A stretch of DNA of 46,596 nt, counting the filler, from Streblomastix strix (Eukaryota), in assembly GCA_008636045.1 (NCBI GenBank). It is 2 parts of 2 records of this genome, joined end to end, with 100 filler letters (N's around TTAATTAATTAA, not from the genome) between each part and the next. Parts side by side here need not be neighbours in the genome. Positions count along the whole stretch, not along the records: positions 1 to 23,249 come from SNRW01000293.1; positions 23,350 to 46,596 come from SNRW01000294.1. One strand, written 5' to 3'. The notes beneath the pieces are model-generated. The model searched no databases and was not told the origin of the DNA. It was given only the letters and a program-made list of their open reading frames with translations. Positions 3,819 to 46,596 of the stretch are shown piece after piece. Within the stretch, counting starts at the first letter, position 1. Every line of letters starts with the position of its first letter. The translations under genes were made by a program, and so were the position numbers.

Positions 3819-6800
3819 ATGATTGATGAATAAATTTTGAGCGATTTATAGCGCGATAATAGTGTTTAAAGGGAAGATTTCTTTAGAATTTCACACAATC
3901 CAATAATTTTCTAGCCAAATCATAAATTAATTAAAATATTATCAAATTAGATGTTGCCGTCAAGGTAAGAAGTTTCTTATGATAACGAAAAAATTCACAC
4001 TGGAGTCAAGTAGAAACAGGGTAATGATTTAAAAGGACTAAATATTGAAATAAAACATTTCAAATTTATATCCGCTATATATTAAGCATTGGGTCTTACT
4101 AATTGCGAATACTATAATTAGTCAACTTTATTATAATTCTCAAAATAAGAATATTTAAACAAAATCAAAAATTCATCTCCCAATGCTTTCGCTTTAGATC
4201 TTATGAAGAAATTTTAAAAATTTGAGAAAAAACGAACATCAAAAATTGACTTAAACAAAGGAGTAAAGTTTATTGAAGGAAGGATTGGGACATAATAGAA
4301 GATATATACAAGTGAGTCTAAATAGAATCCAAAATAAACAAATCCAGAATCCGCAATAAGATAAAAATCACAAAGCCCAGAATTAAATGCATAATAAATA
4401 AATATGCAATGAAACTAGCCAATTAGATAACTAAGCTCAGTTTAATCAATATATTAACGAAGAATATCACAATCTCCTCCTAAGAGATCATCTTTTGTTA
4501 TTGTTAATTAATCTTCACCAGTTTCACCAAATAAATATTAACTCTTGAATTAAATTAACAAACAAATTAGAAATGATATTGATAATAAATTAAGCATAGA
4601 AGAGAATTTTCTAATTTATTAGTAAATCAAAACTTCAAATGCACTTAATTAAGAAGCATTTTATTATTCGTAGTTCTTTAAATATTTGATTTAATTTAGG
4701 AATGCATTTAGATATTAGTAAGGTTAAAAATTATAAGAATCATAGTATAGATTTGAATAATTTGGTAATTAAGATTTAATATAAGATTTATTCTTACGTC
4801 CATTCTACATTCTCGTCCATTTTGTGAATGAATCTGGAATGGGGATTCTTCCAGGAATGTCTAAAGTGATTATGAATTATTCTCAAATAAAGGAAATAGT
4901 AGATTTTATTTTAGATGATAAAAAAGTAAGTGATAAATAACTTAACAAAATTAAGAAATAATCATTTTCAGTTAATATCCCAGAAAATATTTTATAAGAT
5001 AGCACACTTCATTTATTGTTTTGCTTTCATATATAAAGAGAAACTTTGGATTAAACTGATGATTTTAATGAAAGTTTTCGTTCTCAATCATAAAATTCTT
5101 CTAATTCTTCACAATCATAATTATAGAGTTAAATCTAATTACTTCCTTCACCATCGGAGGCATTTGCACATTCATTCTTTATGATTCACTCTTCATAAAA
5201 CAAATTAAGATAATAGGGTGAATATGAGCTACGAATATATTGTGGTCCACCTCCATTCTAAAAATAAGATAATAAATATAATATAAATGAAACAATGATG
5301 GATATCGAATGAATTGACTAAATTAATGAAATAATGAATGAAGACGGAGAAATAATTGAAATAAAGAAAGAAGAAGATAATGAAGAAGAAGAAGAAAGAA
5401 AATAAGAAGTGAATGAAAATGCAAATTTAGACAATTAGAAGGTTAATTTAAGTGCTTCTCTTACACCATTTATTCGTTCATAAGCACCTTCTCCTTCTTC
5501 AACATCAAGACTCAGTCTAAACATCAACTTGCAACATTCAACTTCTCAATAATCTTCTTAGTTACACTTTCAGAGATAACAATAATATATTAATATTAAT
5601 TCATCTCACTCACCATAAATGGGTAAACAACACTAATTAATGTAATAATAAATGTAATAATAAAAATTATTATAATAAAAATTGAAGTTAAAGTAGAAGA
5701 AGAAACATTAAACACTAAGATTGGATCTTCTTCCCTCATGTTAATTTAGATTTTGTATTTAATATATTGAACTTAGGGGTAGAAAAGTATTTGATGATGA
5801 AATTGAATAAAATGATGATATGAAAATAATCAAGTAAAATAAAAAAGGGATAGAATACAACAATAGAAATAATGAGTTTACTTATGATAAAGAAAATATT
5901 ACAAAAGAAAGTTAAAAAACTGAATTTATTCATAACTATTCAAATTTTTATAAATGTTTGACTAATGCACAACAATCATACTAAAGAATTAATGATAAAT
6001 TGAGTAAATATAAATATAACAAGAATATAGATAGTTATTATGTTAATGATGAAGATATAGAAAATGATCTTTTGAATGAAATTATTTAAGATTGTAATGA
6101 TGAATACAATTATGATGAATTGAGAATGTTTATTAATAGTCAACATCTTCAACAATTTTTCTTTGATTTATTATAAAGCAAATAAAAATAAGAAGGAAAA
6201 ATCCATTAGAAATAATAATAACTTTTTAAGGATGGTCAGCATAATAATAGTAATGTATCACAATTCATTAATAAAATAAACTATTAAGAAGCATCAGAAA
6301 ACATTTCATTATCATCACAATTATCCTCTCTTTTATACTATAATACTAATTAATAGAATAGTGTTAGTAAAATAAATAAAATAAATAATGTAAATATTGA
6401 ATACAATTTTTAGTCTATATTCCTTCCAAATTACATTTATTAGTCACCCGTTGAAGAATTAACTTAAGATCATTTTAGTGATATATACTTACCTATTGAA
6501 GTTGAATACTAATTAAATTTTGATGGTGAGAATGATAAAATGGTTGAAGATGAAAAAGTATTAAATGAGAAAAAATAATATTTTATATTAAAAATTAGGT
6601 AAAAGCATTAATAATATATTAAGATTAATAATCCTGTCGTTAGAGCATTACTTTAGTTAGATTAGAATATACAAATTGACTATTTATCATCATAATAATA
6701 TGATTAAACATATAATTATTTATTTAGTGAACTTAAATCTTTTATTAATTCATAATAATAAGATTTAATGAATGACACTATTATATATAGTATTAATACT

Positions 6801-9800
6801 AGTTAATATAATTCTATTTTGCCTCATACACTCAATTTTCTAAAATAATTATAATACATAGAAATAAATTCAATGAACAAACAATTGAGAAGAGAATTGA
6901 CTTTTATTTGTCTGAATAATGATGTTTACAACCAAGAATAATAAGATCATAGTTAAGAAGATGATAATATATGTAAGATTATTGAGCGATTATTTGATAT
7001 TATTAGAGAAGCCAAGAATAAAAAATCGAATGATAAAGAAAGAAAAGAAATAGATTTGCATTTTCCAGAAAATAAAGAATTTTAGAAAGTGAAATATAAT
7101 AATAATAAATATAACAACATGATAGATCTTGATTGGAATAAGGATGGATAAGAGAATGCAATTGTGAAGAGCAATTATAAGATAATTTTTACTTTATTAT
7201 CAAATTTGTCTTCGTATCATTTAAATATTAACAACATTTAAAATAATATAAAAACTAGTTAAGTGAATAATAACTATGAAGATGAAGATGAATAAATATT
7301 ATAATCATTCAATATTTATTAGATCTCAAATTCTTTTCTCAATATTATTTCATTTTTCAATTCATTCACTTCTTCATCTTATTCATAATATAAATAATAG
7401 TCTTTTTCTTTGTTTCCTTCTCCTTTTAATTATACTTCTTAAACACCACAATATTCATCTTCCTACTATCAATCAATTCCTTAATAGTCATATTTATTAA
7501 ATTAAAAATAACATCTTAACCTCAATAAAATTAATTCTACCCCTTCAATTATTCCTGTATAATAATAGATGTAATAATAATAATTTAACTAAGTAAGTAT
7601 TGAGTAAAAAGAAATATTTATTTAATATATTAAATAATGCATCTTGAAATTTGGTTGTTTAGTCATTATTTTGATGGAAGAAGAAGAGAAGAAAACGAGA
7701 CTTTCATAAGAAAAGAGAAAATTTAATTAATAATCCTACAATATTAAAGAATATATAATGAATACATTTTCATTTGAATTCATTACAGATATCATTGAAC
7801 ATACTTTTTGTGGAATTCTAATTATTATCAATGAAATAGAAAAAGAGAGAGAGAACGAATTGAATATGAAGAATAAGAATAAGAATAAGAATAAGAATAA
7901 GAAAGAGACAATATAACAACGAAGGGAAAATGAAAATGAAAATAAATAATAAATAAAATAATAAGACAATTTGAAAAAAACTTGATAGAATTAATCACAT
8001 TAATTAGAAATAATTCATTCAGAATAAAATATTTAATAATTTGAAATAAATAAATAAATTGATAAATAAGAATAAAAACACACAGAAAAATAATAAGTAG
8101 AAAAATAAGAATAATATTAAGAAGAATTTTTAAATAGTGAATTATAATAGGAACAACAATAAGAATAAGAATAAGAATAAGAATAAGAAAAAGAATAAGA
8201 ATAAGAATAAGAAAAAGAAAAAGAATAAGAATAAGAATAAGAATAAGAATAAAATAAAAATCAAGAATAAAATTAAGAATAAGAACACATGAATATTTCA
8301 GAATAAAAATAGAAATAAGAATAGCATATAGGAATAGAAGAACTTTGGATGGAATTTAAAGATAGCAATACTACTAATAATAATTAAATGAATTAGAATA
8401 AATAAGATGTTCAATAAAGTAATGAAATAAAAGATATATAAGAAAAAAGCCAAAATTAGACGAACTATAATTAAAATATCGCTTATAGTCATTATAATTA
8501 TTATTAAAGATATTTAATATTAAATTAGTTGATTTTTGAATTAATTCACTTTTATATTCCTGCCTCTTCTATTGTTATTAAATTATGCCTTGAATTAATT
8601 TATTAAAAAGAATAAGAGAAAGAGATGAATTATTAAAAAGAAAAGAAAGAATAATAAGATATTGAAATTAAAATGAAGTAAGGTGCGAATTAAATTTCTT
8701 TGTAGAAAAAGAAATTAGATTTTTATTTAAATTCCTATTCGTATTCATATAATTAATTTTCATCTTCTAAACCTCCTGCTTCACCAGCTTACTAATAATC
8801 TTTTAATATTTACTATATGAATAACATGAATGCTAATAATTAAAGCACTAATGAACCCATTTCTAATCTTCTTCATCACAATTCTTCAAGTCCATTAACA
8901 ACATCACCTTTATTCTATCGTTAATCTCCTTAATTGAATTCTCCCTAGTCTTTATCTCCTTTATCTACATACTCACCCTCAAACTCACATTCTTCTTCTA
9001 ATGCAACTTCATCTTCATTCAATATTTATTCTTCTATATTTTATTGGACTGGAATTGCTTACATTCATTTGTTGTTGGTAAAGAAATGTGTTGAATGCAT
9101 TGGATGGATGAAGAATACTAATAGAAGAAAAGAGGATGGGGAATAATAAGAATAAGAGAAAGATAAAGAATTTGGATAAGAAATGAATGAAATGAATTAA
9201 ATATTATAATAAGTTTCAGTTTCATCAACATCATCTATTTAATCATATTCATCAGATGTTTCCTAATTATCATCTTCTACAAATGAATAATCATCTCAAT
9301 AATTATTATTCAATCTTCTTCTTCCATCTTCAACGGTCTTATCAGTTTCTCTCATTCATTCTATTTCTCTGTTTTATAATTCCTTATAATAAATTATATA
9401 AATCAAACATCTACAGATTATAAAGAAGAATGAAAAAGAAAATAAAGAAATAAAAAAAGAAAATGAAAAATTTGGATTAAAAGGAAAATAATGGGTGAAT
9501 GTTTAACATGGAGGATCTCTAAATATTAATTAGTCAAAAACTTTATAAAAACAATAACAGTAATTATTATTATGATAGTAACATTACAAATAATAAAAAC
9601 AATACCAAAACTTCATTCACTTCTCTTTATTGAACTAGAATCTTCCATTTTACATTAAATCTCTTTTATTATTATCCTATAATTCAAATATGAATAAAAT
9701 TGCCTTAAAATTAGTTCTTGATGTATTTTATATGGGAAAGATTAATGAATAATAAGAATAAGAAGAAGTTGGAGAGAATGAAGAAATGAAATTAATTAAC

Positions 9801-12800
9801 AGAAGAAATTCCAATATTATTGATAATAATAATCACTATTAATCAATAAATAATTCAATTATTTAATAATAATATATGACAGATTAATAACAAAAACGAT
9901 TTCTATTTTAATGCAGTTTGATTCCTGTAGTTTCATCTCTTATTTGTAATGTATTAGACATAATAATTATTAATTATTTGAAATTTAGAAGAAAATTAGA
10001 AAATTTATAAGAAAATGAAAAAGGAAGATTGGAGTATTCTATTCTATATTAATCTTTAATTTAGTCAAATTCTGTTCTATATTCTTCTTCGTTTAATTTC
10101 ATCCTACATCATTTATTCTTTTATATTCTTCCTCATATTAATATAAATAATGAAAATATAATGAAAATAAATAATTAGATAATATTTTCTGCAGATGAAA
10201 TAATATTGAATAATGAAATGATGATTGTTAATGAAGGAAGAAATGAAGATGATAATGAAGAAGAAGAAAATGATAATAAAGATTAATAAATAATATAAAA
10301 CTAATAAAGAGACAATATAACTAATTTAAAACATCTTAACCCATTCATTTAACAGTAATTATCTAAATTAAAATGCACCTGATCCAAATAATCATCTTAT
10401 TATTCTCGTTAACTCACTTATATTTTCCTTATAATAATTAGATTTATTATTATTATTAATTTTATTTAATATTATAATTAAAAGATGAATTCAATGTATA
10501 AAAACGTGGAAAATAACATTTATAAATAGAAATTGAAGAATAACAGCAAAACATTAATTATTCCATAAACTCTTACATTTTGTATTATTTAATTTTTTTC
10601 AATATCGATTTAAAATTCATCTAAATAACTACAATAAAGTTAATAATAATAATAATAATAAGACAAAGAATCATAAATTATTTAATAGTCAGATTAAAAG
10701 AATTTTTAAAAATAATAATAAGAAAAATATTTGAATAATTTAATAGTTGCAGTTAATATTTTCACTTAGAATATTAAATAGAGTCTATAATTGTTTGAAT
10801 TTATTTTGAAAGGAATTAAAAATATCATCATCAATATTAACAATTATAATATTAGAGGAAAATCAATTGATGATTAATATTTTAGAATATTTTAAAGTAA
10901 TAAGTCTCATACAACTAAAATGTAAATTATTTCTTCTTTACTTAATATAGCATCATATTTCTTCTCATTTATAACATCTTAATTTTCTTCACTGCCATAA
11001 TATTAAAACAATGAATTATTCTCCATTCTCTCTGAAATCGCTTAACTTTCATTTATTTCATTTAAAAATAATACATAGACTTTAATAAACAGAATAACCA
11101 ATTAATATAATAAAGAAANNNNNNNNNNNNNNNNNNNNNNNNNNNNNNNNNNNNNNNNNNNNNNNNNNNNNNNNNNNNNNNNNNNNNNNNNNNNNNNNNN
11201 NNNNNNNNNNNNNNNNNNCTGCCATAATATTAAAACAATGAATTATTCTCCATTCTCTCTGAAATCGCTTAACTTTCATTTATTTCATTTAAAAATAATA
11301 CATAGACTTTAATAAACAGAATAACCAATTAATATAATAAAGAAAAAAATAATGATAAACCATTAATAATTAATAATAATAATCATTTAATTTTTTGCAG
11401 ACATTCTTAATAAAATTAGCTTAGTTCTTCAATTTAATAAAAAGAATTAATTAAGAAGAATTAATTTATTTCTTTATATTTATTGTAAAATATTCTAATA
11501 AAATAAAATTAAATAACTGATAGTGGTTGTGAAGAAGGATTAAGACTTTTATTGATTTATTTATGTGAACATCAAATTGACTTGTATGAAGAAAGGGTAT
11601 AGATGAATAATATTAATGAGAATGCAAGAGATGATAGTGATGAAGAAATTGGAGAAGCTTGAAATATATTTAATACTATAGAATTGGAAATGTAAATGAA
11701 AGACGAGTAGAAGAGAAAGATCACAAACAAAGATGAAATAAATATAGACATTATTGACGCAATACTATTTTAAAATAACTTACTTAGAAATAATGAAGTC
11801 AATGGATTAAATATCATATAAGAATAAGATGTAGATTATGATAATTATAATATTAAATTAATATACAGATGCTTAACATTTAATATAATAAATATAATAT
11901 ATCATAATAATTCTCTTTTAAAACTTAAAAGATAAATATTTATAGTTTTTTCGATATTTGCCAAATAAATGATTGAAAAATTAAGGAAATTGAGAGAAAA
12001 AGAAAGAAAATATATGTAAAAGAAAACAAAGATAATTAGCGGAACGATAAGAAATAAAAGAAATAAAACAATTCAAAACAAAATTATAGATAATATTAAT
12101 GAATATAAAGAATAATAACATTCAAATTCTTTTTCTTCATCATCATCACTCCAATCTAATTCATTTTCTTTGTGTTATTCATCATATTAGCAACTTCATT
12201 GCTTTCTTTATTGTATTAAAAATAAAATAAAAGTTATTTTGATTGCTGTAGTAAAATAATATCTATAAATATACAATTTGAAACATTAATAATCAGAAAA
12301 TGCTTATAACTAATAAGAAGAATAAAAATGGAAACAAATAGAACTGTTCAAATAAGATAGAGAAATTTAAAATGATTAATTTTCATTTGCATAAAAACCC
12401 AATCTCAATAATATTATCAACAATGAATTTACTTCTGTTTTTTCATTTTTATCTCTTACATGTAATTCAATTTATGCTATTTCAGAATTTATTATTTATT
12501 CATAAATATAAGAAGAAATGCAAGAATAGGAGGAAAAAGGATAAGAAAAAGAATAATTAATGGAAGAGAAGAAGAATAAATAGAATTTATCAACATCATA
12601 TTCATATCATGATTTAAAATAAAAATACATATCAAATAGTGATGAAAATATTATTAAATAAGATTAAAATAAAAATATGAATCTATTATTAGAAAATGGA
12701 AGAGATAATATATTAAGAAAGAAATAATAAATTAATAAACAATAAAATAAATAATTTTTGATAAAAAGAGAAGATGACCGAGAGAATCTTTCTTATATAA

Positions 12801-15800
12801 TATATTAACTATTACAAATAACCAATTCTATTTGTCTATTTGATTATTCTTATTTATATGTATTATCATAATTGCATTTATAATTACGGACTTTAAAGAA
12901 TGCAGGGAAAGAATTAGGATTTGTAATTCTATAGTGGATTGAGATTATAGAAAAGATTAAATAAATCGAAAACGAAAGAATAAAATAAATGATTTTGGGG
13001 AAAGAAAAAGAAAGCAATGATGAAGAAGATTTAGAATAAGAATATTAATTTAAATAAATAAGTAATTATTAATCACCAACCATTCTCCTTCCTTCTTGTT
13101 TATAATAAATTCTTTCCTAATCATTCTATTATTGTAATGTATTAATCTAACCTTTTAAAGATGATATTTAAATTATTCATTCATAATCTTAATCTTAATC
13201 AGAAAATTAGAAATAGTCCTAATCATAATTATCATCATCTCCAAATGATCCAATTCCTTCAACATATTTCTATGACCATAACGCATAGAAATAGAATCCA
13301 CCATTACCATCTTAATATTCATCTCTTCCATAATGCACATCTCTCACATTCAATTCATAGCAGTCATATTTGAATTCATTTCTCATCTAATGGAATTATT
13401 CAGAGTAATTAGTATTACAAAAAATATTTCCTCAATATTTTATAAAATAGCAATAAAATTTATAGCATGATTAATATGAATAAACTTCATAGATTTCTTA
13501 GTTATAATCCAATTCAAAATCATCATTAATTTCTTTAATTTAGACAGATTCAAATTATGATAATAACAAAAATAATATTTAATCGTAAGACAGTTAACTA
13601 TCTTCTCTCACTCAAACACTAACACCTTAAAATTATAAAAGTCTGATTCAATATTCGAATTCAGTTAAATGTCAAATAGCAAGATCACTTTTTGCGTCAG
13701 ATTTATTTCATGAAACATATTAATGGGAAAGGTATAATTAAAAGAAATATAATATTTTAATTTAAAGAAACGATATTTATTTATTTTCCTTCACTATTTA
13801 TAATTTATAATTATATTTATTATATTAAGATCATTCTGGATTATTAATCATGTTACAAATATAATAAACAAATTTGCTGTAAACAACATCGATTCATCAT
13901 CACAGACATCAATAATATAATAATCTTCATTATCTTAGGCCCAATCTCAATTTATTTCACAAATATGCCAATAAATGACTTCATGGAATAATATTTGTTT
14001 AAATTAATCATCATAACTGTTCTTATTTTCTTCTTAAAACCCTTTTCACTAATCTTTCTTTTATGTATCAATAATGAAAAATAATAGAAAAATTTAAAAT
14101 AAAAACAATAAATAATAATAAAATTCATATCAAGATGATGAAAATGAAGAAAATTATGAATAAAACAAAAAGAATATATCATAATAAGAATGTTAATAAC
14201 AGAGAGCGAAATTTTTATAATAAAATTTTATAGAACAATTGGATGAATATATTTATGTTGCATTACCTTATGAATCAATATTTGATTTTAAAAGAAAGAT
14301 TGAAAATAGATATTAATTATCTTAGTTAAATTTTAATTACGATAAAAAACAGGACTAAACAAAAAATCATAAAAATATTGATGAATATGAAAATTAAAAT
14401 GAGGAAGATATTTTTACGCAAAGAAAATAAAATGATTTATAATTAAAAAGTTATAAAAATACATTAACTTATTAGTTTTAATTATATTTGAAAGATGATC
14501 ATACGAATGACTATTAAAGAATTAGTATTATTACTTCAAATGAATAATATGATACAAATTCAGATATTATTATATATATAAATCAAGGTATTTATTTTTT
14601 ATTATTTGTTTAATAATTGTTTAATTTCTTATTATTTTCAATTCAGCATATCCTTTGTCTGAAATCTAATATTAATATAATATTAAAAATAACAATCTTT
14701 CATCAGAACATCAATTTTTTGTTATATATGAAATTACACAATGCAATTGTGGATGCATATTAGCATCATAATAATAATCATAATAATCTAATACTATTCG
14801 ATAGCTTTAAAATATATTAACAAATTCTTAATCTAATCAGAGAGAATAAGGTAAAATTAAATTGAATAAACATGAAAAAATGGGATAATGTATGAATTTC
14901 AATAATCCTGTTAGACATGTACTCCTCAAAACTGAAGTTCTACTTCCAGGCCCTGTATTAAAATGCAAATGCGTTAGAATTAATGATGATATTATACAGC
15001 ATAATTCATAAATTAATGAATTTTGCTCCACAGTTATAGCAAATATAGAATGGACTTTAATATAGAAGAAAAAAATAGATTCTACAATTAATCTTGTAAG
15101 TAAAGTAATTGAAGAATAAAATAAATAATAATTATTTAATTAATAATTTTTGACTTAAAAAACTAAACCAACAATAATTGCTAATTAAAATTAATAAATC
15201 GTTAATGAGTTTGAAAATCCAAATAATAAAGCCGAAGAAAAAAGAAAAGAAAAAAATTTAAACTATGTGATTTTTAATGATTAATAATTAATTTCAGAAT
15301 AGAACAAAGCTTATAATGCTAGATTAAGTGTAAAAATTAATTCAAAGGTTTTAAATAGCACTGATGAATCGTTGAAAAGTGTAATGTCAAGTGGAAGAAA
15401 TAATTTAGGTACAAATATATAGGAATAATCATAATAATAATCATAATAATAATAATCTCTTTCTAATAATAAATTTAATTTGGGGTCTTGTTTGGATAAT
15501 GGAACCATTAATTTAATAATGTTACTATAGGTGACTATAGAAGATGTACTTTTTGGTGAATTAAAAACAAATGCTGATTCTTTTACATAAAATGTTGTTG
15601 GGTTATCAAAAATAAGATCAATTTTAACGAATGAATTATTCTTGCATAAAGAAAGATGTGAACTATTTAATAAGAAAAGAGAAGAAAGGTTTGATTGAAG
15701 AATATTTTACACATAATAACTTTATTATTTTTATTTTTTATTCTTAGATACAATGATGAACTTAAGAAATAGTTTAATTAGAAATAGAACATTCACAAAC

Positions 15801-16018
15801 AATTTTTACTCCTTTCTATACCACCAACATTTAACAATAATGTAAAAACTCTTTCTTTTACAATTGTAGAATTGATCTCCGTGCTACACAAGTTGATCAA
15901 AATAAAATCAGAGCTGGAAATCAAATAACAACAGAAAATTATTCCAGATAGTTTGAATCAGTTGATTGAAATCCAAGGTCTACTGATGTAGCTGGCTAGC
16001 AATATTTTAACTTCTTGA
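3819..16018 (+). CDS. Giant (~3,900 aa) divergent DOCK (dedicator of cytokinesis)-family Rho/Rac GEF with DHR-1 and DHR-2 domains and 5 in-frame TGA
   Basis: One frame runs from 3816 to the gap at 11118 and continues in register after it. DHR-1-like: SVNIPENILQDSTLHLLFCFH..AFAHSF..GEYELRIY (~4965-5240). DHR-2-like: YLYVLSQLHLQL..ILQW (~12850-12935), DLFHETYQWER, DEYIYVALPYESIFDFKRKIENRY, RHVLLKTEVLLPGP, INLIMLLQVTIEDVLFGEL. Introns at ~13732-13829, ~14588-14646 and ~15689-15747. Ends NILTS-TGA (16016-18). An alternative start exists at 3656. Confidence 0.75.
8160..8285 (+). repeat. (TAAGAA)n coding microsatellite encoding (Gln-Glu)n within the DOCK gene
   Basis: Visible hexamer array. The same hexamer at ~7869-7901 is read in another phase as (Lys-Asn)n. 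Confidence 0.85.
11119..11218. other. 100-N scaffold gap flanked by a 127-bp overlap (10992-11118 = 11219-11345); probably a false gap
   Basis: The sequence ctgccataatatt...taataaagaaa occurs on both sides. Merging the overlap keeps the DOCK frame. Confidence 0.9.
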
Positions 16019-16130
16019 TTTATTGTGATTTTATGTAATAATACAATTTTTATTTTAAAAAAAAATTATACGAAACGAAGTGTAGGTTGTCTTATTTGGA
16101 AAAAAGGGCGTTAGGTCATTTAACTCAGAA

Positions 16131-20102
<3,972 letters not shown>

Positions 20103-20682
20103 GTAAATGCAGCACACAAAATAAAAATAAACAAAATTCTATACAAATAAAAATAATTTTAACGTCCAATCTTCAAAATTCATAAAACTAATTTTATTTT
20201 GTTGTCCTGCGCCAGCCTCAAATTTATGTTTGCTTTATAATTTCCGAGACAGATTATCATATATAAATATCAACAATTTCATATTAATTAACAGTCTTAC
20301 TAAAACCACTGAATATTAATATAATTTTTTAATGTTTTTATTCAAAATTTGTATTTTTCATCCGAAACGACATATTTGGAGTTGCAAATTGAATTTAATT
20401 GATATTAATAATATTATAATCAATCTTATCCTGAAGCCAATCAAATTTATATAGTATATAAAATCAAAGTTCTGATTTTAAAATTTATATAAACAATTCA
20501 TCATTAATTCTATCAAAATTAGGATTCTCCTATAAAAACAAAAATTTTCTAAATAAATACTTAAAATACTATTAATTACAATACTGTCATTATAAGCTTG
20601 GTTATTTTATAGTTGAGCATTAGCTATTGTTTTTCAATTGCATTAACTTATCCTATCTTATATTATTTAACAAGCAAAAGAA

Positions 20683-23249
20683 ATGCAATCAAGTCTAAAC
20701 ACTGAGTTGCCAACTACTCCAGTTTCAAGATTAAGGGATTATATATTTTTTGGATCTGTTGAAGCAGCATTATCTGAGGAGGTTAATATATTTTGACGTT
20801 AACACTTTATATCCTTTTATTATTTCTGAAGTTTATATATGCCAATAAGATAACGCGAGTAATAAATTGTGCTGGAGGACATATTGTTAACAAATTTTCT
20901 ACTTTGGGGATTAAATACCTAACTTTCTTTTTATTAGATGAAGACAACAGTTAATTCATTGATTTTGCTGGTTTTTTTAATTGTTAAAAAATATTTTTTA
21001 TTGAATCAATAAAACGAAGATTATCATTTTAATAGTTATTTCAATATATATTAATTATATTAACTTATAATATATTATCAGGAACGAATCCGCGAAGTGT
21101 CCAAACATTTATAGATGCAGCACGTGATGACTGTGAGAATGTGTTGATAGTGAGTGTGAAAGGAAGATCGAGATGTCTTCTGGTTGGAGCTGCATTTCTA
21201 ATGACAAAATTCAATTATTCATCTGAAGACGCGATCGAATTTGTCTCATAAGTGAGAAAGATTTGAATGCGCCCTGCTTTTGAGGAATAATTATGATAAT
21301 ATGAAAAAACATGCTAACATGTTTCTTGGACACCAGAATTATTCTAAGAAGAATTTATGCTTAGAAATACACATTATAACAGGACAATAAAAGTTGAAAT
21401 AACTCCACCTGAAAAACCAACAAAGACAAAAGTTACATTTCCAAACAATCCAGTTAGTTTTTTAATATCAAAAACAACCAAAACAAATAAGGAATTAAGT
21501 TAAGGAAATTAGACTTCATAAAATCCATCTTAGTTGAAAAGCATATTAATAAGCAGTCGTAACACTAAAAAATTACCTAAAATATTGGAAACTCCAGAAG
21601 AATTGAAATAATAAATTTAATAATTGTGTGAACTATTATCATAATAGTCTTAAATTTCTCTCATATCTCCTTCAATTGCAAATTCTGCTGCTAATGCATT
21701 CTTACAACCAAATTAACAGAATGGATCATAAACAGCAAATTATGCAAATTAATTCTACTCTGCGTTATAAATGACTTCATTTGGCTAATCTACATCAGCT
21801 TCAATGTATCTTAATAGTTTGATTATTACAGTTCGTGGGCTGAGTAATACTTTTCTGACAAACATGCAATTATCTAAAAATGTACCTCTTATAAATGTAT
21901 AAAGAATATTGGATGAGAATATCCTTCATTAATGTTTATTATATGAAGATGTTGAATGGTTAATGTTGATGAGAAGTGTTGCAATACGAACTGCAGAGAG
22001 ACTTAGAAATTTAACTGAAGAAGGAGATGAATCTTCAATTCAAACTTTATTGGATGATGATAATAAAAATAAAGAAGAGATTGAAAAATAAAAGAAAAAA
22101 GAAAGAAAATTAAAAAATAATAAAAAATATAACTCTAAATTAATAAACAAGAATCAAGCAGTACTTTAACCGTTACTTGCATGGTCCCTTGACAGAGAAG
22201 AAATTAGGATGATGTATTAAAATGTGAGAGATTAATCACATATAATTTATAATAAAATAATGGGCAATGTGGATTTGTAATTATCAGACTTAGAAGGAGA
22301 TTAAGATAAATAATTATAAGACATTGAAAATGAAGAATAAAATATTACTGAAATAAAGGAAACAAATTCTAACATTAATAATCAACCAAATAAATAAATA
22401 GAGAATAAAAATGGAAAAATGAAGAACTTAAAATAAGGAAAATTTTTAACTAATCAATCATCTTCATCCGCTTCTACTGCTTAAAAGAAAACAATTCAAT
22501 CAAATATTAATTCATAATCAAATTCTGGGCTTATTAATAATAGAGATAAAATAAGATATTAAGATCCATCTTAATCATCATAATCTATTTCTAAGTAAAC
22601 TCTATTACAAAATAACGATCTTTCATTTATTCCGTAATAATGGGAAGAATTAGATGGTCAATAAGTTTAAGATCCATAATCTCCAAATTCCTCACCAATA
22701 AGAACTAAGAAGAAGAAAAAAAAGAAGAAAGTGATGTTCAACTTATCATTTTCTTCATCTACACATAGTCATATCACAAATAATACTATATCAAATAATC
22801 TTTCAAAATCAAATATTTAATCTATTTCTCCTCATAATAATTAATTATAATAAAGACCTTCTCCAATATAAACTCAGTTTTCAAACCATAATTTGGTTTT
22901 ATAATCGCCAAAACCACAAAAAAGAATAAATTTTAATAACTTCATATAAACATAATCATAATTTTCTCCTTCTTCTCAACAATCATCATAATTTTCTCCT
23001 TCTTCTCAACAATCATCATAATTTAGTTCGCCTTTATAACATAGCTCTAAACAAAATGATATTTCAACATCTACGCTTAATTAATAAGAAGATTATGAAT
23101 CATTAGATAGTTATGAAGAAGTAGATGTTATAAAAGATCCATATTTTGAAATTAAACCAATTGAAACAGTATCGTCTTAAATATCACTACCTCAGTCTAC
23201 TGCTCAATTATTGAAACAAAATGAAATAATAGAATATAATGAAATTTAA
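20683..23249 (+). CDS. Dual-specificity phosphatase-fold protein, predicted catalytically dead (C->S), with 2 in-frame TGA and a long low-complexity tail; 3' truncated at contig end
   Basis: RLRDYIFFGSVEAA, NKITRVINCA, GIKYLTF, FIDAARDDCENVLIVSVKGRSRCLLVGAAFLM, EDAIEFVSQVRKI*MRPAFEEQL*QYE. Two GT-AG introns (~20781-20831, ~20970-21080). Confidence 0.88.
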
Positions 23250-23349
23250 NNNNNNNNNNNNNNNNNNNNNNNNNNNNNNNNNNNNNNNNNNNNTTAATTA
23301 ATTAANNNNNNNNNNNNNNNNNNNNNNNNNNNNNNNNNNNNNNNNNNNN
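23250..23349. other. Artificial contig-joining linker: 44 N + TTAATTAATTAA + 44 N
   Basis: A 12-mer with TAA in all six frames, centred in a 100-nt spacer. Flanking pieces are 23,249 and 23,247 bp. Confidence 0.92.
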
Positions 23350-24072
23350 CTTATACAACGTCTGTATTTCTATTAGCAGAAGCTTTATTCTATTTTACTC
23401 CTCTTCCCAAACCACGAAATCCAACCCATCCTTATTTCTCTTCTTTTTGTGCAGTTGCTGTTCTTTCAAATTCATCAAGTGCGAGATCATTCAGACGTTG
23501 TATAAGAAATATGAACATCTTCATTGCATTCCTCAATCTAACTGGAACTGTTGCTAATTCCTGTCCACTCATCTCATTGAAGTTGACTGATGCTGCAACT
23601 GTTGATCCTTGAGTCTTCTTCTTCCTCAGAGTGCCTTCACCCATTCCTATTCCATCTTCTAATGGTTATCCAATTATATTCCTTCTGAACATTATGTATG
23701 AATCAATAAGTGGGATCAATGCATTCAATCCTTCATATAAACTACCAGCAAGATCATTCTTTGTACTAACTTCCAGAAGATCGTACTAAGCTTGTTATAG
23801 AAGTCCAAATAGAGTATCAAATACTCGGTGACTGGGGATCTTATTTGGTACAAAATTAATAATATCATCTTGGCATTATATGAAAAAAATTAATATTATC
23901 ATAAAAGAAAAAAAGAAGGCAAACTCTGAATGTTGTTTAGTGCTTATGCTGCATCAGCAGGGTCTTCATATAAAGATGCACTCTCAACCATGAACGTGTG
24001 GATATCATCAGGCTGTTTTAACAAATCTTCGTATAGCTGTGGGATGATGAATTCCTCATTTACACTGTCCAT
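23350..24072 (-). CDS. NCAPD2: Condensin I HEAT subunit CAP-D2/Cnd1/Ycs4, N-terminal part (truncated at contig end)
   Basis: MDSVNEEFIIPQLYEDLLK..HTFMVES, HRVFDTLFGLL, RLRNAMKMFIFLIQRL, GLGRGVKQNK resemble the CAP-D2 N-terminus as I recall it (EFHLPLSPEELLK, HFDTIYSIL, HLNALKMNCYALIRL). One short intron. Confidence 0.72.
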
Positions 24073-24980
24073 CGGAAGAAGAGTGCAGATATCTAAAAAT
24101 AGTATCAAATATATAATTAAATATAATTTAAAAATCCAATTAAATATATACTAAAATAAAAATATCGGTCAGTAAGGTAAGTATTCTAACTTTTTTCAGA
24201 AAATTTTGTTAGGACAATATTTACTTCTAAAAATTTTATTTATTGTTATCTTGCGAACAATTGTTGATAATAATATGTATTATTATATTTAAAAGCATAA
24301 GAGTTATACTTAGAATGAAGCACGAGCAGATATCATGTGTTTATTTAAAAATCCAAATAAATGATTGGCTTGTTTGAAAAGAGTGATTTTAATATTAATA
24401 AATGAATAAATAAAATTTATAAATGTACATGACTTGCAAAATTTAAAGTAAAGAGAAGTGAATATGAATAAAAAGTAAATTCCTTCTAACTTCTTTTCCG
24501 GTTGTTTATTATTACTCATATACGTTCAAAAAAATTATTTAACCAATTATATATTAAATTTTACTTAGAATATACATATTACCTTTAATTCATCCAATAA
24601 TTGTTATATTTTTATATTTTTCAGTTTTTTTATCTCTATAAGTTTACATAGATTTATTTTATTAATTAAAATCAATCTCATTTTATTTAATAACAATTTT
24701 AATTATAAATCATCATTTGTTTTTCTATTAAATCTAACAAAATCAAATGGAAAGAAAAAATATTGAAAATTTAGCACAACGTAAATAAAAGAATGTTATT
24801 CTTCATTTGCTATCATCATTTTGATTAATTATATATATTAATCATCCTAAAATATATTACTAAATATATTTGATAGCCATGTGAAGATGAAAATCCAAAA
24901 AAAATCAATCTTAAAATTTTCTCTCAAACATGATTAGTTTCAATTTTTTTTAATCTATTTCCTTTGTAGAATATATTGCG

Positions 24981-25686
24981 ATGTCTAACCAGAATTAGAA
25001 GTAGTTACGATTAAACAACAATAAGAGGATGAAACAAATCATCCTTGCTGTTGCAATAATCAATGTAAGCTTTACTCCTTTATTTATTGTTATTTAATAT
25101 TTTTTGCAATTCATTTTTCATGCAGGGCATTGCAGTTATTTTTAGGATAATATTGATGCTTCTGCTTCATAGAAAGTTTAAGTTCTGGTCTGATTGGCTT
25201 TGGGTAATTATTACAGGAGCTGCAACTGGTTATATTGCGAAGATGTTTGCTGGTATGAAGGCTCGCGATGATGATATCACTTCAATGGGAGGAATTTCAG
25301 GGTATAATTAACAAATTGTTGCAATTTTTTTTCATTTCTCTTCATATTTTGATATGTATTTGAAGATATATCTACGATTTTTTCTTCATAGCTTTGTTTT
25401 CTTAAGCTACTGCATGGATTACTCCATATTTCTGGCTAACGTACATGGTGATTCCAGGATATGGACTATTCTTACTTGCGAAGAAGCTTTTACAATAATC
25501 AAATGAGTAAGAAAGAGAATTGGTTTAAAATTGATTTATTATTCTATTCTTTTATTCTATTCTATTCTTAATTTTCAGACCGATGATGAATAAAGAATAT
25601 AAAGTGATTTAAAGCGTAAAGAAGATCGAAGATAGCAGCGTAGGGAGAAGCGATAAAATAAAGGAATTAAGATAAGGTAAAAATGA
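24981..25686 (+). CDS. TMEM208: TMEM208/SND2 (DUF788) SRP-independent ER targeting protein
   Basis: MSNQNQKQLRLNN.., transmembrane segments, DDITSMGGISGYIYDFFFIALFSQ..YFWLTYMVIPGYGLF, basic C-terminal tail KRKEDRRQQRREKR. Three introns. Ends IRQK-TGA. Confidence 0.85.
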
Positions 25687-26101
25687 GTTTTGCTCCAAAT
25701 TAATTTTTAACTTTTGAAATTTCAATACATAAAACTTAAATTCTTATATTGATATATAGATACAATTTTTATTTACTCAATTTGTTTTTACTTTTGATAT
25801 TGACATGAAAATTTAATGCATAATCAAAAATTGATTTCGAGTTATTTGTTGTATAAGTGAATTGTTTCAATATTTATTGTAAAAACAAATATTTACCATT
25901 TTTAATTTATTTAATTTAATATTTTACAAAAATTTAATCTGCACTTGGTGGAATTACAAAAACTTTATTTTCTTGTCAATCTCTAATTTAATAATATTTA
26001 TATCTTGTTAATACTTGTAATACTACATAAAATATTTAATTAATTGCAAAAAATTCAAAATTATGTTATAATCCAAGAGTTATTTATTTATTTTTTTAGT
26101 G

Positions 26102-29100
26102 ATGAATTTTGCATCTCCTGTATCTATTGCATCGCATTTCGGCATGTCCAGCGGGGTTTTTACTGGCGATAACATTTCTCTCGGCGAATTTGAGGGAACA
26201 GGATTTAGTGATGCGTTCTCTAAGTTCCTTGCTTCAGCTTCATCGATTCCTGGTCAATAATCAACCCTTTAATAGTCATATTAATCGTAATCTGCACGTT
26301 TACCTTAAGAATCATCTTAATAATAATAATTATTGTAACTATTCAGACCCAATTTTTTGCAAGCTGAAGTCACATTACCGCCAGGATCGGACATTGCAAA
26401 ATAGAGCCTATCCCCTTAAGATACACCCGAACCATCAATTGTAAAAACACCTACTTAGAAAACGTCGAGCTATATATCACAATCAATAATAGAGAATATA
26501 AAAAATCAGATTGATTCTGAGGGAAATGAGAAAAAATCAGAAATATTTCAAGATTTTACTCCATCATAAACAAACATTGAATCATTTAAGAATAACTTAG
26601 AACAATCTCCATGTTACTAAAAAACAGATCGAAGTTCATCAAATTCATAAATGGATGAATAAATCAGTATAGATAATATGTATGATAAAGCATCACTAAC
26701 AAATATCACTGATAATGAATATAGTGAAACGAATGATATTTATTCAAAAAGAAATGATTAGTAATATAACATAACTCAGAAATCAATTAAAATAAACAGA
26801 AATGAAACAGATTTAGAGAAATATAGAGATAAAATTAAAGTAACAAATAATTTTAGTATCAGAATAGAAGAAAAAGATAAAGATAATAATTATAGGAATA
26901 GAAATAGTAATAATAATAGAATAAAAATAAAAAATAAAGATATAGACAAAGACTATCAAAATACAAAAGAAATAGAAATTAATGATGAGATAGAAAGTGA
27001 TAGAATATAATAAATTGAATAACAAAAAGAAATGGAAAGTAAATCCCATAATTAAAGTTAAATAGTGTGAATAAGAGATATAGAAATATAAAGTAATAAA
27101 TTTAGTTAATTAAATGAAGAAAACAGTAAAGAGATTTAAATCAACAGTTAAAGATAATTATCAATATAATAATCCCAGAAGAAAGAAGAAGAAAAGGAGG
27201 AAATTAATGTTGATAATAAAGTTGAATAATCTAATATTGCTGATGATAAAGAAGAAAGTGATATACTTGGTGATCTAATTCGAAAATTAGGTTAGAAAAC
27301 AATAGAAAATAAAAGATTAAGGGATGAATTATCTAAATATAAAGATAACAATGATGGAATAATGATTAAACTATAAGAATTATCAAAAGAGAATGATAAA
27401 GTATAAAATGAACTAAGAGATATAACAAATAGTAGTCAGAAGATGATTAATGAAATTGAAAGATTGCATTTAGAGAAAGATTAGATTGGATCATAATATA
27501 AAGAAACAAAAGAATAATTTAGGAAGAGTTTAGAGTAGAGCGAAAAGGATAAACAAGAAGAAGTGAATAGACTATTGACTAAATTAGAGAAATATTAATA
27601 GAGAAATAAGTAATTAATTTAATTGGCTATTGAGAAAGAGGAGAAAAGATAATTGAAATATCTTGAAGAATCAGAGAATATAGAAATATAATAATAATAA
27701 TTACCTGATAATAATACTTGTGATTTGAAAAATAATGAAAAATCAAAGATAATTGATCAAAATCAACAATTTGAGGTGAATCGTAGTCTTATCTTATAAT
27801 CGGATAAATCAAAAGATGAAATAATTTCAGTCAAAGACAGAAACCAGCCAAAAAGTATAATGAGAAGATAGAGTAAGGAAACAGAAGTAAATCAGCCTGA
27901 AAATGTAATAATGATCGAAAAATCAAAAGAAAAAGAAAGAACAAAGGAGTTAGTGAAGAAAGTAGATTTATATAATGAAGATCTATTAAATAGTACGAAT
28001 TTCTCAAACTTAACAGCTGCAGTTACTCCTCATATCGCAAATGATACAAGTGCAACTATTAATTAAATAAAAGGATAAAATATAAGTAAAGAAATTAATA
28101 TTAATTAAAATAATTTAACATAAGGCAAAAGAATTGATTTTATAAATTCTTCAAATAAAGAATTATAACAATCAATTCACACTTCATTTCAATAAAATGA
28201 ACATTAGCCAATAATAATACAAACGTATTCACCTCCAAGAGTTGGAGTATAATCAATATCATCATCATTTAGTTCATTTCCTTCAATATTTATTCCTCCG
28301 TCTCATAGTTCAATCTCTGAATAATCTAGGTTATAAATTAATGCTCCTTGTAGAGTTTCATTCTCTAAAGTATGATAAATAATAAATAAATAAAATTATA
28401 TTATTGATATTAATATATGCATTTATCGTATTCATTATTGATATCATTTCTATTTTCTCTTCTTTTTCAAATTATTTATTTTATTAGGATGAACCATAGA
28501 TACATTAAGTATATAATCCTACATAAGCCACATAAACATAGGTTGTATATATAAAGAAAATGAAATAAGGCAAATAAAATTAATAGAAAATCTATGAGGA
28601 TGATTAAAATAATAAGAAAAAGAAAGAAATTGAAGAAGATGATATTATATAAGAAGAAGAGTTATTAGAAGATGAAAGAAAAGAAAAAGATAATAAAAAA
28701 TAGATTAAAAATAAAGAAAGGAAGAATGAAGGGAAGAAATTGAATGAAAAAACTAAAGATAAAAGTTAAATTCAATAAAAAGTGAAAGATAAAGTTATTA
28801 AGCAAAATAAAATGCATGAAACCGAAAATGAAAATTATAATTAGAAATATAATAATAGTAATGATAAAAAAAATAATTCAGGAAGAACTAGTAGAAAACA
28901 AGATTAAGAAAGTACAATTCATACTCAATAAATGGAGTAATCTTCTAATATAATAGAATAATCAACAGAATTTAACATAATTGAACCTTCATAAATATCC
29001 ACTTCATCTTCACCTTTAACTTCCTCTTTAAACTCATAACGATCCTCATAATTACCTAATTAGTCTTCATCTACTCATAAGCATGTACAAAAATGTTCTA

Positions 29101-31564
29101 TTTCAGCTCGTTAACATCCAAAACCTGTACAATAATCTTCGATCCTTTAATAGTCATATTAATCATAATCTGCACGTTTACCTTAAGAATCATCTTAATA
29201 ATAATAATAATCACCTAATTAGCAAAATAACATCTCAAATTCTTTTACTGTTTCTCACTTATAAATTAATAAAGCATAATCATCTTAATCTCAAAACCCA
29301 TCAGTATATTCACCACCATAACAATCATGTGAATCTTTATCTTCATCCAAATAATTTTCACCCTCTTCACCAAATTCCCAAGTAAATAATCATACAAATA
29401 ATCATAATCATACTCATACACACATTCATAAAAATTCACAATCACGTCCTCATTCAAATACTCATTCAAATACTCATTCTAATACTCATTCTCATCATGA
29501 CCATGATCAATCTATTCGATCTCATTCTTAGATACATAATTAATATTCATCATAATCTTCTCTTGAATCAAAATAATCATAATAAACTAAACTTTCTTAA
29601 AAGTCTTAATAATCATAAAAATCCCAAAAATCTTTATAATCAGTTTCATCTCAACTATTTTCTTAGATATCATCTTCAAATGAATCTAAAACATCTTTTC
29701 CAATTTAATAATAAATAACTAATTAAGATAACATTAATAATTTAGAAACAATAATTCCATTATTGGGCAAATTGGCTATAACATCAGTATGAGATTAAAA
29801 TATATAAATTTATTTCACTTATATTTATATCCAATTTCTATTTCTACTTATCATATTATTTCATTTCACTATTTTAGGAAGGAATATCCATGTCGCATCT
29901 AAGCCAAGTCTTAAATAGTATATCTTCTAATATTTCATTCATCAAACATACACAAATATCGACATAGCATACATTTCTCTAGTTATTACTTGCTCTTCTT
30001 TCTGCTGAACATTGTTCTGCTGAAGACCCTGATACAGTGGTATGAAATAAGATATGGAGTAATTAAAAATAAATAAGAAAACTACTTTATTATTATTAAT
30101 TGTTTCCACTTATCATTAAATTAAATTATAGTATTGTCCACACAGTTCATTTCAGAATGAGATAATGGTAGTAGAAATGGTGTAGACATTGAAAGTATTA
30201 ATTTATTATTATTATTATTGAAATTAAAAATATCTTCATTTGATTTTTTATTATTATTTTATTAAACAATATAAATATTATTTATGCCATTTAAAATTCA
30301 GGAAATATCTTCAACCAACAAACCTGATAAAGAAGTGGGGAAAAAAGGAGTAGATTTGAATAGAAAATCATCTTATTAATCTCAATTAAGTTCATAAAAT
30401 AATAAATCAATTGATTAATAAACACTAAACACATAAAGAAGTGATGTAATAGAAGAATAATGGACATTGACTCTTCTCTCTTCTTTAGCTTTGCTTCGAC
30501 TCATTCCAATACAAAGTCATCTAATAATGATTTCACAAGCATCTGATCGTCTTTCATCATCTCATTCATAAAAATAATCTTAAATATAGCATTCTTAATC
30601 ATCTTAAATGTTAGATTCGAATTCGCTTCAAGTTGAGATATTAAATGTTTATGACAATATTGCTGCATGTTTCAAATTTGCTCAACTTAATATATCATCT
30701 GAATTCTTCTCTAATAATGGAGTCATCTTTGTTGCTCCTCACTTACTTTCATAACATCCAGCTATAGTTAGTAAGACAGTTTAACTATTTCTTGCTCTAT
30801 CAAGACAATAACCCATTAATTATACTTCTATGACAGAATTAAATTCAATCATATAACCAAATTCTGAAATACTAAAACTAAGCATTTCACCTTCATCTGC
30901 ATTCTTATATTCTTAGTCTCCATCACCAACTCATTTCAAATATCCATATTCTTCTTATAGAGATAAAGATAATAAATAAGGAAATATATAAAGATCTTAA
31001 TCATATGATAATTATTCATAGGTTCATGACTCATAAAAAAGAAGCTCATCCATTTCATCAGAACTTTCTTTTAAAGGAAAGAACTTAAAAAAGATAATAT
31101 AAATTTAATCCACTTCAAGAGACTTCATTTAAGGATCAATGTAAATTGAAGCCAAAGAAGGTACTGTGTTCGAACGAGAATGTGGCAATTCGTGGATCTA
31201 GCTTCTTCTTTTCAGAGCACTCCGTCGTTGTTTCAGATTTCAAGCTATTCAATCCATGCAGGAAGATACCGATATTGAACAAATTGAGGATGAAATAGAC
31301 ATTACTAAGAAAGTTGAGGAAATAGAATCATCCATTGTCATTTTGTTGGAGCGAACAACCAAGAACTCGGCAATAGCAACTTAAATAGATGGAAAGGAGA
31401 AATTGGCAGAGCTCATTCGTGAGAAGATAAGATTGATGAACAAATAAAAAGAGAAAGAGAAAGATGATCAGCTAAATTCAACAAGAATCTCTAGCAATGC
31501 GAGGAAACAATTACTGATTTCAAATCTAAAAGCAATCCTTCGCAATATTAGTTTATTGCAGTGA
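26102..31564 (+). CDS. Large hypothetical protein: low-complexity N-terminus, coiled coil (~27270-27670), S/Q-rich middle, helical (ARM/HEAT-like?) C-terminus; 1 in-frame TGA
   Basis: Open frame with TAR=Gln from MNFASPVSIASHFG; four GT-AG introns; ends ISLLQ-TGA. No recognised family. Confidence 0.75.
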
Positions 31565-44965: not shown

Positions 44966-45873
44966 CGCAATATATTCTACAAAGGAAATAGATTAAAAAA
45001 AATTGAAACTAATCATGTTTGAGAGAAAATTTTAAGATTGATTTTTTTTGGATTTTCATCTTCACATGGCTATCAAATATATTTAGTAATATATTTTAGG
45101 ATGATTAATATATATAATTAATCAAAATGATGATAGCAAATGAAGAATAACATTCTTTTATTTACGTTGTGCTAAATTTTCAATATTTTTTCTTTCCATT
45201 TGATTTTGTTAGATTTAATAGAAAAACAAATGATGATTTATAATTAAAATTGTTATTAAATAAAATGAGATTGATTTTAATTAATAAAATAAATCTATGT
45301 AAACTTATAGAGATAAAAAAACTGAAAAATATAAAAATATAACAATTATTGGATGAATTAAAGGTAATATGTATATTCTAAGTAAAATTTAATATATAAT
45401 TGGTTAAATAATTTTTTTGAACGTATATGAGTAATAATAAACAACCGGAAAAGAAGTTAGAAGGAATTTACTTTTTATTCATATTCACTTCTCTTTACTT
45501 TAAATTTTGCAAGTCATGTACATTTATAAATTTTATTTATTCATTTATTAATATTAAAATCACTCTTTTCAAACAAGCCAATCATTTATTTGGATTTTTA
45601 AATAAACACATGATATCTGCTCGTGCTTCATTCTAAGTATAACTCTTATGCTTTTAAATATAATAATACATATTATTATCAACAATTGTTCGCAAGATAA
45701 CAATAAATAAAATTTTTAGAAGTAAATATTGTCCTAACAAAATTTTCTGAAAAAAGTTAGAATACTTACCTTACTGACCGATATTTTTATTTTAGTATAT
45801 ATTTAATTGGATTTTTAAATTATATTTAATTATATATTTGATACTATTTTTAGATATCTGCACTCTTCTTCCG

Positions 45874-46596
45874 ATGGACAGTGTAAATGAGGAATTCATC
45901 ATCCCACAGCTATACGAAGATTTGTTAAAACAGCCTGATGATATCCACACGTTCATGGTTGAGAGTGCATCTTTATATGAAGACCCTGCTGATGCAGCAT
46001 AAGCACTAAACAACATTCAGAGTTTGCCTTCTTTTTTTCTTTTATGATAATATTAATTTTTTTCATATAATGCCAAGATGATATTATTAATTTTGTACCA
46101 AATAAGATCCCCAGTCACCGAGTATTTGATACTCTATTTGGACTTCTATAACAAGCTTAGTACGATCTTCTGGAAGTTAGTACAAAGAATGATCTTGCTG
46201 GTAGTTTATATGAAGGATTGAATGCATTGATCCCACTTATTGATTCATACATAATGTTCAGAAGGAATATAATTGGATAACCATTAGAAGATGGAATAGG
46301 AATGGGTGAAGGCACTCTGAGGAAGAAGAAGACTCAAGGATCAACAGTTGCAGCATCAGTCAACTTCAATGAGATGAGTGGACAGGAATTAGCAACAGTT
46401 CCAGTTAGATTGAGGAATGCAATGAAGATGTTCATATTTCTTATACAACGTCTGAATGATCTCGCACTTGATGAATTTGAAAGAACAGCAACTGCACAAA
46501 AAGAAGAGAAATAAGGATGGGTTGGATTTCGTGGTTTGGGAAGAGGAGTAAAATAGAATAAAGCTTCTGCTAATAGAAATACAGACGTTGTATAAG
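45874..46596 (+). CDS. NCAPD2: Mirror copy of condensin CAP-D2 N-terminal part (truncated)
   Basis: Reverse complement of 23350-24072. Confidence 0.7.

Follow-up and report, generated by a model that had tools for sequence, protein, structure and literature searches.

Streblomastix strix, a termite-gut oxymonad of the Metamonada, appears to use a nuclear genetic code in which TAA and TAG specify Gln while TGA specifies Arg within genes and termination at gene ends, a reading to which we give a probability of roughly 0.55 and under which, with TGA both read as Arg in mid-gene and stopping translation at the end, no codon would serve as a dedicated stop. The DNA analysed, here called the window, is a 46,596-nt stretch made of two contigs (SNRW01000293.1 and SNRW01000294.1) of assembly GCA_008636045.1, in which we built eight gene models by coordinates. 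As modelled, one codon, TGA, ends all six genes whose 3' end lies in the window and also sits within three of the eight, with nine internal occurrences distributed over a large gene (six), a dual-specificity-phosphatase (DSP)-family gene (two) and a coiled-coil gene (one). That internal UGA is translated, with all residue options taken together, we regard as likely from the sequence comparisons described below.

The original prediction for this DNA had already described TGA as both internal and terminal in these genes, and this double role stands: all 12 coordinates that it gave (eight internal and four terminal) are TGA in the frames assigned to them. Its suggestion that the DNA might come from an oxymonad like Streblomastix was likewise right. 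Its internal list proved nearly complete, since all eight sites are present, one of them (10380) being doubtful and a ninth (9573) having been missed. In-frame TGA is strongly avoided yet present: positional base frequencies predict 76.7 occurrences in the three TGA-bearing genes, which contain nine, or about 0.1% of codons. These genes are the three longest models and have the lowest GC content at third codon positions (GC3, 0.17–0.18), and the other five models contain no internal TGA in 2136 codons. TAA and TAG together make up about 10% of codons in the gene models.

The DSP gene carries most of the evidence for translation across TGA. Its public counterpart, NCBI model EZS28_002429 (P0002 in our search), the single match among five candidates when the DSP exon was read with table 27, is 100% identical to it and comprises residues 1–140 only; splicing 20683–21263 under NCBI table 6 regains exactly this sequence, whose last codon precedes TGA 21264. 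The expectation that table-6 annotation breaks genes was thus borne out for the one gene in which it could be followed, the model stopping after 140 of at least 801 residues. Table 6 places no TGA inside an intact coding region; here two lie in the conserved DSP domain and its extension, and the Pfam DSPc match spans both (exon residues 6–75, with the TGAs at 61 and 71). A HMMER search with a profile of residues 1–182 against 1.84 billion representatives returned 1073 proteins, of which the best 150, including P0002, were examined, with short homologues ending within the DSP domain set aside. A quick tree built from the query plus the first 74 matches places the query in a 12-row clade (SH-like approximate likelihood-ratio support, SH-aLRT, 100), on a terminal branch whose length, 0.45, is the median of the tree; we infer that these close homologues come from oxymonads or their kin. 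Ten of its 11 clade partners span both TGA columns and align without gaps across them; the remaining one, P0072, with a match reaching only to residue 134, was left out of the counts. Identity to the ten is 33–55% before the first TGA and 28–60%, or about 50%, behind it, and the mean identity of the query (0.45) lies within the range of the other rows (0.36–0.49). When the stretch behind the second TGA was searched alone, it matched seven of the 12 close homologues, with one of these matching a second time some 210 residues farther along.

The best-matching public run carries the label termite gut metagenome. Contigs from four public runs were compared over 21082–22050 only, X3 and X4 yielding none there, and such contigs may hide alleles. 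The original prediction had called for the TGAs to be confirmed in raw reads; for the two DSP sites, at contig level, the X1 contig carries both unchanged. Six variant sites occur in the public contigs, all six at synonymous third positions and two of them behind both TGAs (chance probability 0.0014). Because homologues align without gaps, identity is sustained and variants are exclusively synonymous, the DSP gene looks alive and its internal TGAs are probably translated. X1 contains two haplotypes in 21082–21215, with four listed synonymous differences over a span of 134 nt, which is a strong divergence at silent sites. Within the domain (20683–21389), the query has Val-Ser where relatives have His-Ser at the start of the catalytic loop and lacks the catalytic Cys, so that the subfamily probably consists of pseudophosphatases. 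Loci related to P0002 or to the pattern around TGA 21264 were absent from the metagenome and genome contigs searched, and a word-index search of P0002 against longer proteins gave no match among 424 candidates.

We next consider which residue the internal TGAs encode. Among the ten close homologues, the column of TGA 21264 holds Arg in seven and Lys, Gln and His in one each, and that of TGA 21294 holds Arg in five, Tyr in three and Lys and Ser in one each. Across all 149 aligned homologues, 146 of which have a residue in each column, Trp is found in neither, Arg 18 and 19 times and Cys twice and never, respectively. Decoding both TGA columns together with profiles built without the query gave Arg 0.42, Lys 0.15, Gln 0.10 and Trp 0.004 for the 12-row close set (in which P0072 and P0086 were included), with a likelihood ratio of Arg over Trp of 103; the corresponding ratio for the profile of all 149 was 27. 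In controls with two-site codons, the true residue was among the top three for seven of seven (close set) and six of seven (all). Where Trp is the modal residue and S. strix retains it, which is the case at a single column, the codon is TGG. TAA decodes to Gln in the DSP profile (six sites) and the NCBI model reads TAA and TAG (TAR) as Gln, in agreement with that part of the original prediction. Its further proposal that TGA is probably Trp was not supported, with no Trp among 146 homologues at either alignable column and Arg commonest among the ten closest; these comparisons disfavour Trp and favour Arg, short of proving it. Selenocysteine was considered and rejected, with Cys at 2/146 and 0/146 in the two columns and no Rfam match, selenocysteine insertion sequence elements included, in 1–35100 at E up to 1. 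No tRNA genes were found in the window.

For all nine internal TGAs we scored the flanks of each site, using a codon model that had been trained on genes other than the one tested. At seven of the nine, the same frame is top-scoring and coding both upstream and downstream; TGA 9573 has an intermediate downstream score of -3.1 bits, and the six terminal TGAs range from -13.5 to +4.0 downstream. After three of the internal TGAs, in-frame runs of 97–142 codons precede any ATG (p 0.009–0.04 each). We also evaluated all frame-preserving GT-AG intervals of up to 250 nt as potential introns, using a coding model that included the tested genes, and eight of the nine TGAs lie in nothing resembling an intron (best candidates -2 to -31, compared with at least 10.8 for modelled introns). 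Of the nine internal TGAs, seven are therefore firm, one (9573) is probable and one (10380) is doubtful.

Several observations weigh against the Arg reading. The residue call comes from two codons of one gene, the other seven TGAs aligning to nothing, and the all-149 profile places Gln on top (0.17, with Lys and Arg at 0.12 each and Trp at 0.004). The control assigned the correct top residue to only 39 of 52 sense codons with the close set and 32 of 52 with the full one, and a context classifier for the other seven sites did not separate Arg from Trp (area under the curve 0.57–0.58; two variants gave P under Trp of 0.43 and 0.017). Of eight other Arg-modal columns (those with at least four Arg), S. 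strix retains Arg in just five, and it has Tyr at a column with Trp in nine of ten relatives, so lineage-specific substitutions do occur. X1 may itself be the source of the assembly, X2, from a second study, does not cover the DSP TGAs, and the sole variant from X2 lies in a contig of depth 2.2. The DNA behind TGA 10380 is non-coding-like (-17.8 bits, 52% T), and this TGA fits an 87-nt candidate intron (10355–10441) with a score of 7.3, the weakest modelled intron scoring 10.8; it may be intronic or terminal, and in the latter case the large gene may be two genes. Finally, the division into genes that have internal TGA and genes that lack it is not significant (p=0.075).

Foremost among the alternatives, though unlikely, is that the internal TGAs are real stops: CGA-to-TGA nonsense mutations that are tolerated as alleles or sit in pseudogenes, or points where one gene ends ahead of its neighbour. 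This mutation, a classic nonsense change, would align to Arg too, so alignment to Arg is by itself no proof of translation; the NCBI DSP model does end at 21264, TGA 10380 resembles a possible gene end and X1 holds at least two haplotypes. Neutral decay to nine TGAs, however, would have brought about 370 substitutions and about 25 frameshifts (assuming that indels amount to 10% of substitutions), and no frameshift is seen. Nor does the DSP gene show the long branch or the non-synonymous variants of a decaying gene; it has a conserved block behind its TGAs, and the runs without ATG after three TGAs likewise speak for continued translation. CpG observed/expected ratios also differ little between TGA-bearing genes (0.55) and the others (0.53). 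CpG is depleted across codon boundaries (ratio about 0.55) and GpC is not; the ratio in introns, 1.18, comes from just 11 counts.

Hardly more or less improbable is leaky readthrough, in which a mix of near-cognate tRNAs (Arg, Trp, Cys), or one supplying another polar residue such as Gln or Lys, reads UGA without a dedicated tRNA, so that the code would be at an ambiguous intermediate stage and not fixed. The heavy avoidance of TGA, which accounts for only nine of 315 codons when counted with the Arg codons, agrees with this, as does the near-equal standing of Gln, Lys and Arg in the broad profile. In yeast, near-cognate tRNAs supply Gln at UAR, and at UGA they supply Trp, Cys and Arg (PMC4150775); Arg is a natural readthrough product of UGA, which counts for the Arg reading as well. 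The close profile nevertheless prefers Arg, and a 3918-codon gene with five or six TGAs would need a high efficiency at each site to yield full-length protein.

There is a slimmer chance that UGA means Trp within genes and stop at their ends, as in NCBI table 27 and as originally proposed. This is the commonest type of ambiguous code in eukaryotes (10.1101/2022.04.12.488043, PMC12153298), an aromatic residue is tolerated at DSP site 151 (Tyr in three of ten relatives), and with this code a single step, CGA to TGA, would exchange Arg for Trp. The absence of Trp from both columns and the likelihood ratios of 27–103 in favour of Arg run counter to it, as does third-position usage: TGA is nine of 39 TGA and TGG codons, against 68–83% A-ending in other A/G-ending pairs.

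The two weakest alternatives are both very improbable. U-to-C RNA editing that restores CGA, leaving the ribosomal code at table 6, would fit the Arg alignment exactly, and stop codons are known to be reverse-edited in hornwort organelles, but no such editing is known from a protist nucleus. Expressed sequence tags of S. strix retain in-frame TAA and TAG, showing that stops are not generally edited (PMC1501061). Unrecognised introns, or amplification or assembly errors, could explain TGA 10380 with its candidate intron, and the second contig demonstrates that amplification artefacts exist, but the intron scores of the other eight sites, the ungapped DSP alignment and the X1 contig argue against them elsewhere.

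Among known codes, the nearest to the Arg reading would be the Q/Q/R code (TAA/TAG/TGA) reported in seven spirotrich ciliates (PMC10089648), not table 27, because Trp is absent from 146 homologues and Arg commonest among the ten closest at the two sites. In both the spirotrichs and S. strix, TAA and TAG are Gln, in-frame TGA stands where relatives have Arg (both alignable sites here, the broad profile being less clear with Gln, Lys and Arg) and in-frame stops are commoner in low-GC genes (PMC10089648). The ciliate report, however, rests on 987 TGAs in U. setigera (PMC10089648), compared with two alignable codons in S. strix, and in an oxymonad the code would have an independent origin. Karyorelict table 27 shares UAR as Gln, UGA in both internal and terminal positions and possibly short 3' regions, but reads UGA as Trp, a residue found at neither alignable column of S. 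strix (10.1101/2022.04.12.488043). Blastocrithidia (table 31) likewise has no dedicated stop and avoids in-frame reassigned codons in highly expressed genes, but there UAR is Glu, UGA is Trp through a tRNA-Trp with a 4-bp stem and UAA is the terminator (PMC12153298).

The published code of S. strix itself, table 6, agrees with ours in TAR as Gln and TGA at gene ends (PMC13002328, PMC11687900), but makes TGA an unconditional stop, which truncates the DSP gene within the domain. It has been regarded as settled since 2003, and TAR as Gln alone was still applied in 2026 in a study that examined tubulins and worked with the Hexamita table (PMC13002328). Avoidance of reassigned codons in highly expressed genes may be why tubulin-based checks missed the S. 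strix case. The available portions of further reports give only TAR as Gln for S. strix or oxymonads (PMC11687900, PMC5304391, PMC13192750, PMC8629427, PMC1501061), and a literature search, with subscription journals and theses outside its reach, turned up no account of UGA as a sense codon in any oxymonad, S. strix included. The terms "genetic code", "TGA" and "stop codon" are absent from the text of PMC10703272, and "TGA", "stop codon" and "in-frame" from 11 of its supplements.

How such a code might have arisen is suggested by codon usage, in which TAA makes up 79% of CAA plus TAA, and TAG 73% of CAG plus TAG. First-position C-to-T pressure could have converted CAR to TAR once UAR became readable, and likewise some CGA to TGA. 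UGA would be decoded by a tRNA-Arg with a UCA anticodon or by tRNA-Arg(UCG) with a G:U mispair at the first position; UAR would become glutamine in the same way. At about even odds, YAR is Gln and YGA is Arg, the first-position distinction between C and U having collapsed twice, with UGA terminating by context only. As in the model for karyorelict ciliates, the release factor would prevail only where the poly(A) tail is close. UGA decoding is probably inefficient, which would account for the rarity of internal TGA and its confinement to the three longest, lowest-GC3 genes. Internal TGAs lie 1362–3721 codons from the modelled gene end (no fewer than 650 for the DSP gene), and stop-to-neighbour gaps, in a small sample, are 112–859 nt, with two convergent stops 154 nt apart and one stop followed by the next start after 112 nt; these distances are compatible with the poly(A)-proximity model and are no test of it. 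A G at position +4 follows three of six terminal and none of nine internal TGAs (p=0.044), a post hoc observation that we do not use as evidence.

The internal TGAs are spread over both contigs, as originally described, and the linker between these, noted there too, occupies 23250–23349 (44 N, 12 bases, 44 N). GC content per kb is 13–34% across the window. The second contig (23350–46596) is a near-perfect inverted duplication with arms of about 11.5 kb and one mismatch, so that its genes appear twice; it is probably an amplification chimera. Each arm contains a 907-nt tandem duplicate. In the large gene, 127 identical bases flank a 100-N scaffold gap (10992–11118 and 11219–11345), which is an uncollapsed overlap; collapsing it removes the change of frame at the gap and leaves no frameshift. 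The models have 38 GT-AG introns, T-rich throughout and 50–146 nt long with one exception.

Coordinates are collected in the table. The name DOCK, originally given to the large gene, could not be confirmed: it had been assigned from motifs by eye, and neither Pfam nor PDB gave a match; a word-index search of the first exon against shorter proteins matched none of 7991 candidates. The stop of the NXF1/TAP gene lies nine codons past its TAP_C match (PF03943, E 1.3e-10). This model has 20 introns in 593 codons, next to a gene with a single exon of more than 7 kb; one of its introns contains a 28-nt minisatellite (about 18230–18810) and another a long TTA repeat. A stretch of about 20 codons is found at two places within the coiled-coil gene (26268–26330 and 29148–29210), as an internal repeat. 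Six codons past the stop of the SR-rich gene lies a second in-frame TGA (31703, minus strand), a possible tandem backstop. A partial gene on the minus strand at 23350–24093 (mirror copy at 45856–46596) looks condensin-subunit-like by eye, without Pfam support.

Table. Coordinates of gene models, TGA codons and the conserved block in the window
Feature	Position	Strand	Remarks
PP2C gene, 5' partial	391..2959	+	Pfam; 4 TGG; no internal TGA; terminal TGA 2957
Large gene, DOCK-like by eye only	3819..16018	+	model of 3918 codons; 6 internal TGA; terminal TGA 16016
Internal TGA	4410..4412	+	large gene; 142 in-frame codons until next ATG
Internal TGA	5310..5312	+	large gene; coding on both sides
Internal TGA	7983..7985	+	large gene; 101 in-frame codons until next ATG
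Internal TGA	9573..9575	+	large gene; weak coding score downstream
Doubtful TGA	10380..10382	+	large gene; sense, intronic or true gene end
Internal TGA	11660..11662	+	large gene; coding on both sides
NXF1/TAP gene	16131..20102	+	model of 21 exons; no internal TGA; terminal TGA 20100
DSP-family gene	20683..23249	+	open at contig end; at least 801 codons; 2 internal TGA
Internal TGA	21264..21266	+	DSP residue 141
Internal TGA	21294..21296	+	DSP residue 151
Conserved block behind both DSP TGAs	21297..21389	+	three invariant columns: N, T, N
TMEM208 gene	24981..25686	+	PF05620, E 6.2e-7; 5 TGG; no internal TGA; terminal TGA 25684
Coiled-coil, low-complexity gene	26102..31564	+	1684 codons; internal TGA 27068; terminal TGA 31562
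Internal TGA	27068..27070	+	coiled-coil gene; 97 in-frame codons until next ATG
SR-rich gene, terminal TGA	31719..31721	-	TGA 31721; convergent, 154 nt from coiled-coil gene stop

If the Arg reading is true, S. strix would have the first code without a dedicated stop in Metamonada and the first code with UGA as Arg outside ciliates, a second lineage that would back the ciliate Q/Q/R report. Context-dependent termination would then have arisen independently in a further eukaryotic supergroup, via Arg rather than Trp, and in an intron-rich organism with UPF1 (PMC1501061). Public genome and single-cell transcriptome data exist for S. strix. Table-6 models of its long genes would be cut, as seen here for one, leaving the proteome of this amitochondriate systematically truncated, and such truncation would bear on claims of gene presence or absence drawn from the S. 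strix proteome.

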